A program made the position numbers and the translations under genes. The notes beneath the pieces were generated by a model. The model searched no databases. It had not been told where the DNA came from and saw only the letters and a program-made list of their open reading frames with translations. Of a stretch of DNA of 64,000 nucleotides, positions 31,158 to 36,110 are shown piece by piece. The stretch is taken from the NCBI GenBank assembly GCA_965195195.1, contig CBDAFF010000083.1, forward strand, positions 4,225 to 68,224, read 5' to 3'. Origin of the DNA: an uncultured Anaerolineales bacterium. GTDB taxonomy: Bacteria; Chloroflexota; Anaerolineae; Anaerolineales; E44-bin32. Each line of letters begins with the position of its first letter. The stretch's first letter is position 1.

Positions 31158-31300
31158 CATTTTTAGGAACCCTTTCCTTCTGGCACATTTCTTGTTACAA
31201 AGTTAGAATGATTCGGATGGTCTGTGATATGCGAGCTGGATTTTGTGTTCCTTCTTGCGCAATAAGAATAGATAAGGCATACTTTTGGTGAGGTTCTGCA

Positions 31301-34300
31301 ATGGCAGAAATGGATTTACGCGCATATATAAAAGAAATTGACGACCTTATAGAACGAAATCAGTTGGATGAGGCTATCGCACACTGCCGCCACATCCTTC
31401 AGACTTATCCGAAACATCTCGGTTCCTACCGCTTGCTGGGGAAAGCCTACCTCGAAGCGAAGCGATTCGGAGATGCCGCAGATATTTTTCAACGCGTTCT
31501 CTCTGCAATCCCCAATGATTTTGTCTCTCACATCGGCATGGCCATTGTGCGGGAAGATGAGGGTAATCTCGACTCGGCGATCTGGCATATGGAGCGCGCC
31601 TTCGAAACCAACCCCGCGAATCCTGCAATTCGCCAAGAACTCTCTCGCCTAATAGGTCGTCGAGATGGCCTCGAACCACACAAGATACGCCTTACTCGGG
31701 GGGCACTCGCCCGACAATATGCGCAAGGAGAGCTTTACTTGCAGGCAATTGCTGAACTCCGCTCCGCACTCGGCGAAGACCCCGACCGCCCTGATCTCGA
31801 AGTCCTACTGGGGAAGATGTACTGGCGAGCGGATCAACACGCGGAAGCAAAGGATGTCTTCAGCCAAATCTTGGAGAAGCTCCCATACTGCCTTGATGCT
31901 AATCGCTACATGGCTGCAATACTCCACGAGGAAGATAATGACGCGGATGCCGCAAGATATCATCGGCATTTAGCGGCGCTGGACCCGTACTTCGCATTCC
32001 TAGAAAGTACAACCGCCGACCCAAAGACTATTGACGCCAAGGCCGTTCGTATCGAACGGTCGGGTTGGGTCCCTGGCCAACCACTTCCAACTGCCGAGTC
32101 TGGCCCACCAGAATGGGTTGAATCCCTTGGTGTAGATCTAAGTGAAGCGGCGCCTACTCCCCTTGAAGCCGATGATGCTCCCCCCTGGATGGCAGAGATC
32201 GATCAAGCTACAACCCCCGGGAGCACTCCTCCTGCAGTATCAGCAGATGCCCTCCAACCCGCTGCAGAAGACGAAATACCTGAGTGGATGGAGGAAGCAG
32301 GATGGGTTCCATCCAGCGGCGAGGTTGAAGAAGCTCCTATTTCCTTCTCGGATGCTGAACTCGAATCAATCGACGCTGGGGATACTAAAGAGGAAACTGG
32401 TGAACTCGCCCCCGCGGACATCCCTGGTTGGGTCCAAGAAATCGCCCCTGAGATTCCCGACGCTTCATCTGAAACCGACGAACCGGCAGCGGCCCCAGTG
32501 GGCAAAGCAGAATTTATGCCCGAATGGCTCTCGGATATCGCCTCTGACGCGGAGCAGATTACACCTGACCCGATGCCTTCATCTACGGATGAGCCACTAG
32601 AAGAAGCTAAACCCGTTTTGAGCGCGGATCCGTCAAGCGTTGAGGGAAGTGCCGAGAAAGATCTACTTGCGGAGGATGATGCTCCTGAGGTACCCACGTG
32701 GATTGATCCACAAGCGCCAGGCGCAACATCTACCATCATCACCTGGCTCGACGACCGCCCGAGTAAGGATGCAGAACCTGAGAAAGCAGAACTCCCTACA
32801 GAAGCAGTAGAAGAAGCCATTGAAGACGCCCTTGCGGATGCGGAAGTCCCTTCTTGGCTGGACGAGATCGCAGAAGGGGATGAAGTCCCTGAATTCGAAA
32901 CCGAAGCCCCTGAACCAGAACTCGAAAGCCCATCATGGCTTGCCGGTCTAGCAGAAGCAGCATCACAACAAGACCTTGAGCCCGAGCCAGCTGTCGGTGC
33001 TGAAACTCCGGAAAAGCTAGATGAAGAAGCTGCGCCTGAGTGGCTTGAAGGGATCAGTGAACTGGAAGAGGAGCCTGCCCCCGTACCCGCCAGCGATGAT
33101 GCGCCAGATTGGCTGCAAGGCATCGCTGAACCCGAGTCAGTCGATGCGGCCAGGAGTCCGGCAGAAGATCCCGAAACTGGACCTCCTGATTGGGCCTCTG
33201 AGGTCGAGAAAGCGGCTGAGGAGCCGGCTGCTGAAGCAGCACAACCACAGGATGATGTCCCAGACTGGTTGACGGGCATCGCCGATTCGGTAGTTGAGAG
33301 GACTGTTGACGAGGATTTTCTAGCGGAAGCAGATCCAGAGCCTACAGAGAGAGCTGCGGCAGTGCCTGGAGAGGCACCTGGCTGGTTGCATGAGTTTGCC
33401 GACTCAGCTGAGGAAATCCCAGATCCTGTGAGTAAGGTTGACGAACCTGAGATTGACGTACAATCTCTCCAGCAACTTGAGGAGGAGATTAGTGCTCAAG
33501 CAGGTGAGGCATCTCCACCGGATACCCTAGGCGTTAGCGATGAAGTTGACGATGATGAAGTCTTCCGCTGGCTGGAGGATCTTGCTGAGACTCAAGAAGC
33601 TGAGGAAAGCAAACCTCTAACCCCACCTACGGAGAGACCAGTTGAAGCGACCCGGGAACCCTCTCCGACGATCAGCGAAGCGATTCCTCCTGAAGAAGCT
33701 GGTGAGAGTTTGCAATGGCTCGAGGATCTCGCCTCACAGCGAGGTATGGATGTTGATATCGCCGCAACAACTGCCCCTGACGCATCGCCTGCTGAGACGC
33801 TTGTCTCGAAGCCTCCCCCGGTTCCAACCGAGGAAATTGACGCTATAAGCGATATTGCTCCAGACGATGAGACCATCATCTCGGCAGTTGCTCAGGAGAC
33901 TCTTCAAGAAGAGCCCATGCCGGATATACCCGGTTGGCTCGATGAAGCAACGTCTGCCGCAGAGGCGGTACCCCCTGAACCGGCAAAAGAAGCTACCCCT
34001 CCTGTCATCAAAGAGGAAATTCATCCTCCGGAACCAACTCCCGTCGTGGCTGCACCTGTGGTCGAGCTCCCTCCTGTCCCTGAACCCATCGAGGAGGCCA
34101 TTTCCCCGCCAGAAGCTGCTCCTCACATCCCGGCCGCGGCCGCTGAGAAAGCCCCTCCGGAAGCCGAGAAGGTAGAACCTGCTGTAGAAGTTGCACCATC
34201 GAAATATAAGGAACCTGCTTCGCAATTACTCCAGGGCGCACGCCAGGCCCTCACCGCTGGCGATGCTGGACGAGCCTTATCAGATTATAAGAAGTTGATC

Positions 34301-34465
34301 GAGAGAAAACAGGATCTCGACACTGTGATCAGCGATTTGGAGCACGCGTTGGAGCGCTACCCGAACCTGCCGACGATGTGGCAAGTTTTGGGAGATGCAT
34401 ACATGAAGTCAGATCAACTCCAAGAAGCGATCAACGCATATCAACGAGGTATGGAGGTCGCTTGA
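31301..34465 (+). CDS. TPR protein with a roughly 750-aa acidic, Pro-rich central region carrying reiterated P-x-W-[LMIV] motifs
   Basis: TPR-like helices sit at both ends. The centre is rich in E, D, P and A, with about 16 copies of motifs such as PEWM, PGWV, PEWL, PSWL and PDWL. Confidence 0.8.
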   Translation: MAEMDLRAYIKEIDDLIERNQLDEAIAHCRHILQTYPKHLGSYRLLGKAYLEAKRFGDAADIFQRVLSAIPNDFVSHIGMAIVREDEGNLDSAIWHMERAFETNPANPAIRQELSRLIGRRDGLEPHKIRLTRGALARQYAQGELYLQAIAELRSALGEDPDRPDLEVLLGKMYWRADQHAEAKDVFSQILEKLPYCLDANRYMAAILHEEDNDADAARYHRHLAALDPYFAFLESTTADPKTIDAKAVRIERSGWVPGQPLPTAESGPPEWVESLGVDLSEAAPTPLEADDAPPWMAEIDQATTPGSTPPAVSADALQPAAEDEIPEWMEEAGWVPSSGEVEEAPISFSDAELESIDAGDTKEETGELAPADIPGWVQEIAPEIPDASSETDEPAAAPVGKAEFMPEWLSDIASDAEQITPDPMPSSTDEPLEEAKPVLSADPSSVEGSAEKDLLAEDDAPEVPTWIDPQAPGATSTIITWLDDRPSKDAEPEKAELPTEAVEEAIEDALADAEVPSWLDEIAEGDEVPEFETEAPEPELESPSWLAGLAEAASQQDLEPEPAVGAETPEKLDEEAAPEWLEGISELEEEPAPVPASDDAPDWLQGIAEPESVDAARSPAEDPETGPPDWASEVEKAAEEPAAEAAQPQDDVPDWLTGIADSVVERTVDEDFLAEADPEPTERAAAVPGEAPGWLHEFADSAEEIPDPVSKVDEPEIDVQSLQQLEEEISAQAGEASPPDTLGVSDEVDDDEVFRWLEDLAETQEAEESKPLTPPTERPVEATREPSPTISEAIPPEEAGESLQWLEDLASQRGMDVDIAATTAPDASPAETLVSKPPPVPTEEIDAISDIAPDDETIISAVAQETLQEEPMPDIPGWLDEATSAAEAVPPEPAKEATPPVIKEEIHPPEPTPVVAAPVVELPPVPEPIEEAISPPEAAPHIPAAAAEKAPPEAEKVEPAVEVAPSKYKEPASQLLQGARQALTAGDAGRALSDYKKLIERKQDLDTVISDLEHALERYPNLPTMWQVLGDAYMKSDQLQEAINAYQRGMEVA

Positions 34466-34537
34466 TCGCTTCCATCTCTCGACTATTCAAACTAAACTCG
34501 GGGTCTCCCCGAGTTTATATTTTATGGAGGTAACACC

Positions 34538-34990
34538 TTGGAGCAAACTCTTGTCCTAATAAAACCGGATGGCGTTCAACGTGGTCTCATCGGTGAGGTC
34601 ATTCACCGCTTAGAGAACCGTGGTCTCCGACTGGTCGGTGCGAACTTTCAGCAAATCTCGAAAGATTTCGCAGAACTTCATTACGCAGTGCATAAAGGCA
34701 AACCCTTTTACGATGGATTAATTGACTACATCACCTCTGGGCCCGTGATGGCGATGGTCTGGGAGGGTCCCAAAGCGATCTTAGCGGTTCGGCAAACAAT
34801 GGGGGCTACAAAACCTACTGAAGCCGCCCCAGGCTCGCTCAGGCACGATTTTGCCCTTGAAGTGGGAAGAAACCTTACCCACGCATCCGACTCATCTGAG
34901 ACAGCTCGAGCAGAGATCGAACTTTGGTTTAGGGCTGATGATCTGGTCAAGTGGGATCGTGATATGGACCGCTGGGTATTCGAAGCCTGA
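34538..34990 (+). CDS. ndk: Nucleoside diphosphate kinase
   Basis: EQTLVLIKPDGVQRGLIGEV...NLTHASDS (catalytic His region). TTG start with GGAGG 8 nt upstream. Confidence 0.95.
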   Translation: MEQTLVLIKPDGVQRGLIGEVIHRLENRGLRLVGANFQQISKDFAELHYAVHKGKPFYDGLIDYITSGPVMAMVWEGPKAILAVRQTMGATKPTEAAPGSLRHDFALEVGRNLTHASDSSETARAEIELWFRADDLVKWDRDMDRWVFEA

Positions 34991-35259
34991 CAATACCCTC
35001 ACTTCACACCCAAACTTCAGTATGGAGTTAGCCTTGAGCCGGCTCGTCGCCCTGACAGTTGCGAGGGCATCAGCTACGAGCGGAGCCCCTACCTTCGCGG
35101 CGTCGAAGGTCTCTTAGGTATATCGAACGGATTATCTCTCTGCTCTAAGTCCCCTCCATCGAGAACAACACAGAAGAAACGCCGAATAGATCTATCGGTG
35201 TAAAGCGACAATTGGATTACAGGATTAGTGGGTGGATCAATAGAGCTTTTTAGAAGAGC

Positions 35260-35577
35260 CTATTGCATATGAAGGAGCACTCTTCCTTCTTTCCATAAAT
35301 CCTCGAGAGCGTAGTATTCCCGCACAGCGGGAGAGAAGATATGGATGACTAAATCTCCATAATCGATCAGGGTCCAACCTACACCCGTCTTACCCTCGAC
35401 ACTCTGTGCCTGGATAGAATGGCTTTTCTTGAGAGACACCTGTACCTCGTCGGAGAGTGCACGGAGCATCCTTTCACTCGTCCCGGAGCAAATTACGAAA
35501 TAATCGGTAAAAGAACAGACGCCGATAAGATCGAGAAGGAGGATGTTCTCACCCTTCTTCTTGTCGAGTGTATCCAC
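35260..35577 (-). CDS. rsfS: Ribosomal silencing factor RsfS
   Basis: DKKGENILLLDL...FTDYFVICSGTSERMLRAL...WTLIDYGDLVIHIF is typical of RsfS/IojAP. The true N-terminus probably lies upstream (see findings). Confidence 0.85.
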   Translation of the reverse strand: MDTLDKKKGENILLLDLIGVCSFTDYFVICSGTSERMLRALSDEVQVSLKKSHSIQAQSVEGKTGVGWTLIDYGDLVIHIFSPAVREYYALEDLWKEGRVLLHMQ

Positions 35578-35633
35578 GATGATGTGAGCAAGTTCTAATG
35601 CGTTCTCTATCGCCGCCTCCTAGGAGTTCAATT

Positions 35634-36110
35634 TTACAGGATTCCCTCTAACGCCAGTTCTACTGCTTCTTCAGGTGTTTCTACGATTTGAATTGGCGTT
35701 CGACTCCCATCTGCAGAAAGCGGGTCCCACGTCCTCAAACCCACTACCTGCTTCCCCATCTTAAGCGCGAATGCAATCTCTGAGAGGGTACCAAACTTGC
35801 CGCCAATGGCGATCACAGCCCTCCCTGCCCGGGCGACGATCACGTTTCGCCCCTCCCCAAGCCCTGTTGGAATAGCGATTGATAAATACCGATTCCCCTC
35901 ATCCAAAGTCAATCCCGGGAGTATTCCTATCGTGATCCCTCCAGCTTCATGGGCTCCACGGCATACAGCTTCCATTACACCCCCTCGCCCGCCGCAAATT
36001 ACAGTAATGTCGTTAGAGGCAAGCAGTCTGCCCACACTCTCGGCCGCTTGGGCTTCCCATTCAGAGCATTCACCAGGTCCGATAACACTGATAACTGTTT
36101 TCCCTGTCAT
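35634..36110 (-). CDS. TIGR00725 / LOG-like Rossmann-fold protein
   Basis: VIGPG...ITVICGGRGGVMEAVCRGAHEAGG.TIGILPG fits the TIGR00725/LOG-like family as I remember it. Confidence 0.7.
   Translation of the reverse strand: MTGKTVISVIGPGECSEWEAQAAESVGRLLASNDITVICGGRGGVMEAVCRGAHEAGGITIGILPGLTLDEGNRYLSIAIPTGLGEGRNVIVARAGRAVIAIGGKFGTLSEIAFALKMGKQVVGLRTWDPLSADGSRTPIQIVETPEEAVELALEGIL

Follow-up and report, generated by a model that had tools for sequence, protein, structure and literature searches.

Scaffolds that bear many short linear motifs are a known kind of thing: multivalent motifs on disordered scaffolds organize much of eukaryotic cell biology, as in PEX5, GW182 and the endocytic adaptors. 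To our knowledge, few have been described in bacteria, and none from Chloroflexota appeared in the literature searched. Here, we analyzed a 64,000-nucleotide (nt) stretch of DNA (the window; contig CBDAFF010000083.1, assembly GCA_965195195.1) from an uncultured Anaerolineales bacterium and, within it, the gene of a 1054-amino-acid (aa) protein, P0001, which is probably such a scaffold, with an array of Trp-anchored motifs on an acidic chain between two tetratricopeptide repeat (TPR) modules. The source genome (G000; 3.39 Mb, 95 contigs) is 92% complete. The literature searched contained no account of the P0001 family, of its motif or of a link between this family and an operon encoding an actin-fold ATPase. 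A short Trp motif is reused by at least two unrelated families and is operon-linked to an uncharacterized actin-fold ATPase across a mostly filamentous phylum.

By layout, the closest described system is PEX5, in which a disordered region with Trp-anchored amphipathic mini-helices (WxxxF/Y) provides multivalent docking sites next to a TPR domain. P0001 also combines Trp mini-helices, carrying an i/i+4 pair (W-L-x-x-[IL]), with TPR, but the likeness is one of analogy only: PEX5 is eukaryotic, has 7 to 8 motifs, is not hyperacidic and contains a single TPR domain, and its homology with P0001 is limited to the generic TPR. The PEX5-type WxxxF/Y motif is absent from P0001, where the spacing between Trp and the hydrophobic residue (phi) is analogous but the motif is different. 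We know of no bacterial counterparts of the PEX5 readers PEX14 and PEX13. The closest bacterial analogues are HubP and FimV (Vibrio, Shewanella and Pseudomonas), large hubs that recruit several clients, with a very acidic, repeat-containing cytoplasmic part and, at the C-terminus, a TPR-like module. However, these have an N-terminal LysM and a membrane anchor, and P0001 has neither (by Pfam and by a maximum 19-residue Kyte-Doolittle mean of 1.05); moreover, their repeats are longer and imperfect, while those of P0001 are a short Trp motif. The FimV models TIGR03504 and TIGR03505 were absent among the 25 NCBIfam matches listed of the 28 at E≤1, and those listed were generic TPR below the cutoffs.

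At the level of the motif itself, the closest analogue is the C-terminal peptide of FtsZ, D-[IV]-P-x-F-[LM], which lies at the end of a linker, folds on binding and is read by FtsA (an actin-fold ATPase), ZipA, SepF and others; the equivalent stretch of P0001 is E-phi-P-x-W-L. The FtsZ peptide is a single C-terminal copy with Phe, followed by basic residues, whereas P0001 has ca. 17 internal copies with Trp, followed by acidic or neutral residues. Along similar lines, the TPR groove of kinesin light chain reads a "W-acidic" motif (L/M-x-W-D/E) in acidic disordered cargo, often in at least two copies, although this system is eukaryotic and has motif and TPR on separate proteins, and in P0001 it is Leu that follows Trp. 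Judged by sequence, P0001 is not a member of the PEX5 or HubP/FimV systems; the FtsZ-like core is matched only partly.

The gene and its main parts are the following, in window coordinates.

31301..34465, + strand: P0001 gene, stop codon included (open reading frame [ORF] list and translation)
31301..32035, + strand: N-terminal TPR domain (N-TPR), aa 1 to 245, 14 helices (Pfam TPR_19, TPR_14 and TPR_16)
32066..34180, + strand: acidic Pro/Ala/Glu-rich disordered core, aa 256 to 960 (composition, charge and predicted disorder)
34193..34462, + strand: C-terminal TPR module (C-TPR), aa 965 to 1054, with the signature WQxLGDAYM (Pfam TPR_1, TPR_2 and TPR_8 at aa 1026 to 1052)

The core (705 aa) contains 125 Glu, 108 Ala, 105 Pro and 63 Asp residues against 23 Lys plus Arg, giving a net charge of -165 and an isoelectric point (pI) of 4.05. 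Pfam and NCBIfam recognized TPR repeats only, at aa ~12 to 222 and ~1003 to 1053, with scores all above the cutoffs (TPR_19, E=1.8e-24; TPR_14, E=9e-18; TPR_2, E=1.3e-12), whereas the core searched alone had no match in either database at E≤10 and none among PDB sequences at E≤1. The initial annotation of this DNA, made from the letters alone, had described an acidic Pro-rich core of about 700 aa flanked by TPR domains (32100 to 34200, that is, aa 267 to 967), with roughly 16 reiterated motifs that did not look like a simple DNA tandem repeat and that it could not assign to a characterized family. Layout and lack of a family both held, the motif count was fair and, as described below, so was the statement about repeats. 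Because the stop-to-stop frame reaches just 3 codons 5' of the ATG and the hydropathy maximum is the low value given above, P0001 has no signal peptide or transmembrane (TM) segment; therefore, it should be a soluble cytoplasmic protein.

A collection of 5.8 billion proteins contained 1,866 homologues of P0001 at E≤1e-3, the best one being 94% identical over the full length. Those with names were all titled "tetratricopeptide repeat protein" and came from Anaerolineales or Anaerolineae. Full-length homologues with identities of 42 to 94% share an N-TPR of ~240 aa, an acidic arrayed region and a C-terminal LGDAY module, and by this homology P0001 belongs to a large unnamed Chloroflexota family (N-TPR, acidic array, C-TPR). 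The N-TPR is the best-conserved segment (75% identical in distant homologues). Two contigs with copies of the gene 90 and 43% identical to that of P0001, L027 (JAIWHF010000127.1) and P0080, carry the record labels "Methanosarcinales archaeon" and "Candidatus Bathyarchaeota archaeon," respectively; since the remaining homologues are all from Chloroflexota, these labels are probably binning errors.

Nineteen of the 22 Trp residues of P0001 fall in the core, and most of them belong to one array, which is accompanied by four further conserved elements.

32102..33952, + strand: Trp mini-helix array, E-phi-P-x-W-(L/M/V/I)-x-(G/E/D)-(I/L)-A (positions, shuffles, conservation and structure prediction); Trp at aa 272, 296, 329, 377, 409, 467, 519, 546, 581, 604, 631, 656, 695 and 879, with codons at nt 32114, 32186, 32285, 32429, 32525, 32699, 32855, 32936, 33041, 33110, 33191, 33266, 33383 and 33935
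32333..32371, + strand: Trp-less conserved island APISFSDAELESI, aa 345 to 357, a single F-S-x-x-E-L copy (conservation; predicted helix 351 to 358)
32717..32761, + strand: conserved island PGATSTIITWLDDRP, aa 473 to 487, a Pro-less W-L site (conservation; predicted helix 478 to 483)
33548..33610, + strand: first "DDDEVFRWLEDLAETQ" helix, aa 750 to 770, with W757, a Pro-less motif variant (conservation and structure prediction)
33698..33745, + strand: second "ESLQWLEDLASQRG" helix, aa 800 to 815, with W806 (conservation and structure prediction)

Thirteen of the core Trp residues occur as P-x-W-[LMIV], one as P-x-W-A (W631) and two in the Pro-less form [FL]-x-W-L-E-D-L-A (W757 and W806); the others are W482, in ITWLDD, and W256 and W335, both in G-W-V-P. 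All 13 peptides quoted in the initial annotation are present. Motif peptides of P0001 include DDAPDWLQGIAEP, AEVPSWLDEIAEG and DDEVFRWLEDLAETQ; EEVPEWLSRVRER is one from P0122, a second protein of the same genome described below. Position +4 is Ile or Leu at 11 of the 19 sites, and Phe or Tyr never appears there in the consensus. When the core was permuted 20,000 times, the 13 copies of P-x-W-[LMIV] (0.48 expected) were reached in 0/20,000 shuffles, and neither were the 9 copies of the longer pattern P-x-W-[LMIV]-x-[DEG]-[ILF] (0.016 expected) ever obtained. The spacing from Trp to Trp is irregular, 6 to 73 aa, and the array is not a DNA tandem repeat, because Tandem Repeats Finder reported for the whole gene only a single 25-nt, 2-copy match.

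Conservation was measured in 58 aligned homologues, down to 42% identity, and in 47 distant rows of 42 to 55% identity. In the 58 homologues, 12 core Trp residues were invariant and a further 5 were present in ≥90%, so that the motif is not lost in orthologues, and at conserved sites Trp was never swapped for Phe. Even in the distant rows Trp was retained at 97%, and the per-site conservation of the 14 array Trp residues was 0.79 to 1.0. Ten-residue motif windows were 55% identical in these rows, compared with 24% for the spacers, and the number of inserted residues per sequence was 1.2 aa in motif windows versus 226 aa in spacers. The elements outside the array behaved similarly: F349 of APISFSDAELESI is invariant, with S348, S350, E353 and L354 in ≥90%; G474, A475, T478, I479, W482 and L483 of PGATSTIITWLDDRP are invariant; W757, L758, E759, L761 and A762 of DDDEVFRWLEDLAETQ are invariant or in ≥90%; and W806, L807 and L810 of ESLQWLEDLASQRG are invariant. 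Over the 2840 core Trp sites of 121 members, the family consensus was E(-4)-[IVA](-3)-P(-2, 63%)-[DES](-1)-W-L(+1, 66%)-x-[GED](+3)-[LI](+4)-A(+5)-E(+6). Short linear motifs in disordered chains typically show up as conserved islands amid drifting spacers, and these alignments indicate clear purifying selection on the Trp motif.

Two other explanations of the core have to be faced here. It is low in complexity, and the pattern might be a chance or compositional artifact of such a region or of recent DNA repeats; however, the shuffles, the absence of a tandem DNA repeat and the position-by-position conservation of Trp at 42 to 55% identity refute this, and we give it practically no credence. 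Alternatively, P0001 could be mainly a polyanionic spacer or a cation/polyamine buffer (an entropic bristle), the Trp sites being minor structural punctuation. The net charge across the 705 aa would suit this role, and so would the PF00850 deacetylase gene found directly 5' of the P0001 gene in 26/48 loci, as PF00850 includes acetylpolyamine amidohydrolases. Yet bulk charge needs neither invariant orthologous Trp nor motif windows twice as conserved as the spacers, and the recurrence of the motif in a second family would go unexplained; we consider this explanation very improbable.

The full-length protein was modeled with AlphaFold2 (AF2) from the 58-sequence alignment. The TPR modules were predicted confidently, with helices at 6 to 239 (predicted local distance difference test [pLDDT] mostly 75 to 96) and 973 to 1053 (pLDDT 90 to 97), while 526 residues, including most of the core, had a pLDDT of <50. 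Within this disordered background, AF2 placed a short helix at, or starting one residue before, 14/19 core Trp residues (271 to 275, 295 to 301, 328 to 332, 376 to 381, 408 to 418, 478 to 483, 518 to 524, 545 to 558, 580 to 589, 655 to 661, 697 to 700, 751 to 770, 800 to 813 and 878 to 888) and called none at W256, W335, W467, W604 and W631. Counting only the array, 11/14 Trp residues had a short helix, the exceptions being W467, W604 and W631. Foldseek searches of the full model against PDB returned generic TPR only (TMq ~0.1; TPR domains of OGT and CTPR at probability 1.0), and the Foldseek and phmmer matches (OGT, designed CTPRs, PEX5 and LapB) were all generic TPR; by sequence, PDB yielded OGT and designed TPRs only. 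The initial annotation had proposed selection for a multivalent motif on a disordered scaffold and had asked for a disorder prediction; the predicted scaffold with its short helices, together with the retention of Trp and the contrast between windows and spacers, bears this out, binding itself being our reading of the pattern.

Most helices at Trp sites had a pLDDT of 47 to 68, and only the Pro-less DDDEVFRWLEDLAETQ (86) and ESLQWLEDLASQRG (84) stood out. This exception is relevant to the possibility that the motifs bind the TPR domains of P0001 itself, within or between molecules, resulting in auto-inhibition or in a self-associating network of stickers and spacers (a condensate or gel). TPR domains bind peptides, PEX5 combines TPR with a Trp-motif array, and the high confidence of these two helices, alone in the core, suggests packing; in addition, the arrangement of a disordered region between N-TPR and C-TPR is kept phylum-wide. 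However, when the fragment aa 740 to 1054 was modeled without the N-TPR, using a 33-sequence alignment from homologous loci, the two helices retained a pLDDT of 87 and 78, respectively, and their confidence is thus independent of the N-TPR. In these models, they may dock on the C-TPR or on each other, or they may simply be strong conserved helices. Both TPR modules are, besides, mildly acidic (pI 5.3), which argues against this explanation and led us to reject a simple electrostatic attraction of the acidic core to the TPR domains. These points, and others that come from the distribution of the motif (see below), make binding to its own TPR domains unlikely.

A six-frame scan of G000 for ORFs with at least three P-x-W-[LMIV] matched three ORFs: P0001 (13), a 703-aa protein of contig C13, P0122 (5), and a polytopic-looking protein (3), in which the matches are probably incidental.

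L005:6615-8723 (L005 = G000:C13:18000-33000), - strand operon: P0122 (ORF scan)

P0122 has a weak N-terminal zinc ribbon, ~400 acidic residues with the motifs, a TM segment, a domain of ~200 aa and a second TM segment. Its P-x-W-[LM] sites are EAAPNWLGRLRE, EAIPDWMDDF, EEVPEWLSRVRE, IELPDWLGES and ATLPSWLEAMR, and there are two extra sites of W-L type, DDWLANIR and EDWITRLR. The 509 homologues have the Trp context E-[LVI]-P-D-W-L-x-[RE]-[LIM]-R. The P0122 family resembles P0001 in having an E-phi-P-[DE]-W-L-x-x-phi core on a disordered acidic arm and occurs in the same genome as well as phylum-wide, but it differs in having a zinc ribbon and a membrane anchor rather than TPR and in lying in an ATPase operon, while P0001 is soluble and encoded elsewhere.

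The order of this operon in G000 is DUF6754 protein, 7-TM protein, P0122, 6-TM protein, PF13941 ATPase and a 359-aa protein. The ATPase, encoded at G000:C13:22469-23833 on the - strand, is a soluble actin-fold protein of the PF13941 "MutL/GlmL" family (585 aa, E=9e-61), and it and the 359-aa protein are the only soluble, TM-free products among the six genes. The 359-aa protein has a weak RnfC_N-like match, and after it come a bitopic protein rich in Pro and Thr and another protein, of 460 aa. In six distant genomes (f19, f35, f29 and f56; L104 to L109; the f-codes are families in the genome sample described below), a P-x-W-L array protein (7 to 63 copies) was also located one gene 5' of the PF13941 ATPase, so that with G000 this order was found in seven genomes inspected, belonging to five families.

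The ATPases themselves differ at their ends (L104 to L119, P0243 to P0261). Those of f19, f35 (Herpetosiphon-type) and f56 have a disordered linker and a basic amphipathic tail (RRNWFGRRKS, KRGFFRRK), which is reminiscent of the tails that target FtsA and MinD to the membrane, whereas those of Anaerolineae and f29 have no basic tail and stop directly after a conserved W-x-W/L-x-x-L-G helix. A W-[LFM]-x-x-L-[GA] helix, similar to the WLEDLA helices of P0001, closes the globular part of every ATPase examined. In the Herpetosiphon-type ATPase, the tail linker itself contains two P-x-W-[LM] motifs, which may be regarded as a partial natural fusion and which we counted in favor of the link between motif and ATPase.

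In order to put these families into perspective, one sample of 301 Chloroflexota genomes was searched with the P0001 N-TPR, P0122 and PF13941. The N-TPR matched 80/301 genomes at E≤1e-20, P0122 39/301 and PF13941 118/301. Of the 80 genomes in which the TPR family occurs, 76 also had PF13941, and the TPR family was present in 31 of the 39 P0122-positive genomes. All 15 f29 genomes with a TPR-family match and all 19 f2 genomes (18 with a TPR match) had PF13941, and in these two families every member read (n=3 for f2, n=5 for f29) had P-x-W-L in its tail, as did G000.

We read 20 distant TPR-family genes, most of which keep the N-TPR, a long tail and the C-terminal LGDAY module. The tails are mostly acidic (D+E, 0.13 to 0.24), and the motif that they carry varies by lineage. 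DLPDWLKGL-type motifs, in 8 to 13 copies, are found in f2, and PSWLAAL and GPDWLKSLGA types in f29, whereas f19, f35, f56 and f65 (L006 to L010, L015, L016 and L018) have almost no P-x-W-L and carry 5 to 23 copies of P-F-S-L-x-[DE]-L-G-L-S-x-[DE]-E-I-A. Some copies in these PFSL-type arrays are near-identical recent repeats. P0001 retains one invariant PFSL-type copy, APISFSDAELESI; in Chloroflexia-like orthologues, the array consists entirely of this motif type. The copy in P0001 looks like a relic, and the lineages would then differ by a motif swap. Unlike these TPR-family arrays, those of the membrane proteins are P-x-W-L in every genome examined. The matches also suggest that Herpetosiphon, a genus with cultured members, has both the sister system and the PFSL-type array. 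The array type correlates with the ATPase tail type, but weakly, over approximately five lineages.

Two genomes that are 98 to 99% complete, G148 and G076, have a zinc-ribbon protein with 3 to 4 W-L motifs beside the PF13941 gene and no TPR-family match at E≤1e-20. Because the array is found there without such a match, the reader of the zinc-ribbon array is not only the TPR family. These two genomes, and in general the arraying of the same motif in zinc-ribbon membrane proteins without TPR, also speak against binding of the motifs to the TPR domains of P0001, as do the Chloroflexia-like orthologues, which retain both TPR modules with a different array motif. We infer that the zinc-ribbon/ATPase system is the primary home of the P-x-W-L code and that the TPR scaffold carries it only in some lineages, Anaerolineae included.

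A motif array under selection, on a chain predicted to be disordered, is shared by two families and co-occurs with an operon. We consider it probable that P0001 is a multivalent docking scaffold, made of Trp mini-helices on a disordered polyanionic chain between TPR modules, and we infer that the motifs are binding sites. Two folded TPR modules would be joined by a polyanionic disordered chain of ~705 residues, along which would be distributed ~17 Trp-anchored peptides with the consensus E-phi-P-[DES]-W-L-x-[GED]-[LI]-A. Each peptide probably folds into a helix of one to three turns upon binding and is likely a weak docking site; with many copies on one flexible chain, avidity would allow one molecule to collect the reader in large numbers. 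As for the TPR ends, they would bind either other cargo or one another.

Since the zinc-ribbon array protein is encoded one gene 5' of the ATPase in all seven genomes inspected, the reader most likely belongs to the zinc-ribbon/ATPase system. Within it, the PF13941 ATPase would be the best single candidate, analogous to FtsA on the D-phi-P-x-F-L tail of FtsZ, both readers being actin-fold ATPases, although we propose this assignment only tentatively. More speculative still, and in our opinion doubtful, is a wider model in which the P-x-W-L mini-helices would be a Chloroflexota-wide docking code read by an undescribed FtsA-like PF13941 ATPase. In some lineages this ATPase would have its own membrane-targeting-like tail, and elsewhere it would be attached to the membrane via the zinc-ribbon array protein. 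The TPR scaffold would have acquired the code in Anaerolineae, replacing a PFSLxELGLS-type array and linking TPR cargo to a membrane-associated cytoskeletal system. Knowledge of the reader would establish a new recruitment system in bacteria and perhaps also a cytoskeletal or membrane-organizing machine not described before.

Several observations weigh against the ATPase system as the partner of the docking scaffold, or against the mini-helices themselves. The P0001 gene sits among HDAC, ndk and rsfS genes, outside the ATPase operon. The counts of co-occurrence are confounded by shared ancestry, and PF13941 is also found in 42 genomes without the TPR family. The two motif flavors are different, basic in the P0122 family (Arg at +3 and +5) versus acidic or neutral after Trp in P0001 (Gly, Glu or Asp, then Ala), and each may have its own reader. 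With a hydrophobic moment of 0.35, the motif windows are only modestly above the core average (0.27; standard deviation, 0.13). Finally, the likeness to the FtsZ tail, on which the analogy with FtsA draws, is suggestive, not compelling, and moderate at most: among 90,085 W/F sites of G000, scored on their flanks only with position-specific scoring matrices (PSSMs), the two FtsZ tails rank 83rd and 513th with the P0001-family PSSM, which speaks for the analogy, but only 755th and 1266th when the PSSM of the P0122 family is used.

The small excess in hydrophobic moment also bears on the idea that the mini-helices are membrane-binding amphipathic helices that tether P0001 to the cytoplasmic membrane. 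The residues W, L, I/L and A at positions 0, +1, +4 and +5 share one helical face, and the sister family is membrane anchored. On the other hand, the moment is only slightly raised, and the strong acidity of the flanks would cause repulsion from the anionic lipids of bacteria, so that we attach very little probability to a membrane tether.

The FtsZ tails raise a further possibility, namely, that the motifs mimic the FtsZ C-terminal peptide and engage FtsA or another FtsZ-tail reader, making P0001 a regulator or organizer of division in filamentous bacteria. G000 encodes two FtsZ proteins with the tails LDIPAFLRRR and LDLPTFLRRR (LDLPTFLRRRATVGSRS), whose D-[IL]-P-x-F-L is matched by the [DE]-phi-P-x-aromatic-L core of the motif, and the FtsA gene, at about 34984 to 36075 of G000:C10, lies directly 5' of FtsZ1; G000 also contains the PF13941 ATPase, and no SepF (PF04472) was detected, the genome being 92% complete. 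The FtsZ ORFs are on G000:C10, from offset 36164 (+), and on G000:C43, from offset 31609 on the reverse strand. With the P0001-family PSSM, the tails ranked 83rd (FtsZ2) and 513th, and over both PSSMs they were within the top 0.1 to 1.4% of sites, but every rank other than the first is unimpressive. In addition, the Trp of conserved sites is never replaced by Phe, the residues after aromatic-Leu are basic in FtsZ tails and acidic or neutral in the P0001 motifs, and P0001 is not linked to division genes. FtsZ mimicry seems to us quite unlikely.

The neighborhood of the P0001 gene is strongly syntenic across 78 loci (31 to 94% identity). In 51/56 loci, ndk is located directly 3' on the same strand, with gaps of 52 to 259 bp; matches to rsfS and ligT were found in 51/78 and 48/78 loci, respectively, and an L,D-transpeptidase gene is also recurrent. 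The quantified synteny with ndk is new here, as are the motif swap between lineages with its apparent relic PFSL copy, the weak correlation of array type with ATPase tail type and the helices independent of the N-TPR. Two putative transcription signals flank the gene.

31180..31209, + strand: promoter-like site, CTGGCA, 18-nt spacer, TAGAAT (consensus scan, 9/12 matches; ~90 nt before the ATG)
34493..34527, + strand: terminator-like hairpin (34493 to 34517), 11-bp perfect stem with 6 G-C pairs, 3-nt loop and T-rich tail (consensus scan)

The hairpin begins 28 nt past the stop codon of P0001, before ndk (34538 to 34990), and is suggestive of a terminator; promoter-like sites were no commoner in the region than in shuffles, and the evidence for the promoter is weak. 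Because these sites bracket the gene, it may be transcribed on its own. For that reason, and given that the entire neighborhood is syntenic, a functional operon link with HDAC or ndk was set aside. A 233-aa TPR ORF found 5' of the deacetylase gene in another locus (L002) was considered as a duplicate of the N-TPR and rejected (25% identity, E=0.002). Opposite the acidic core lies a 358-aa antisense ORF (32203 to 33279, - strand), rich in Ser, Ala and Gly, which is most likely the shadow of the GAA/GCC-rich (GAN/GCN) coding strand and not a gene.

The PSSM scan of G000 was also used to look for single-copy carriers of the motif. It showed no functional theme, and beyond the two array families its top matches were mostly false ORFs or sites in the interior of folded domains. 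The only plausible carrier outside both array families is a 743-aa polytopic glycosyltransferase of GT-C/PMT-like type (G000:C29:14148-16376, - strand), the disordered N-terminal tail of which contains EPSVLDWLKSLARG (VLDWLKSLA).

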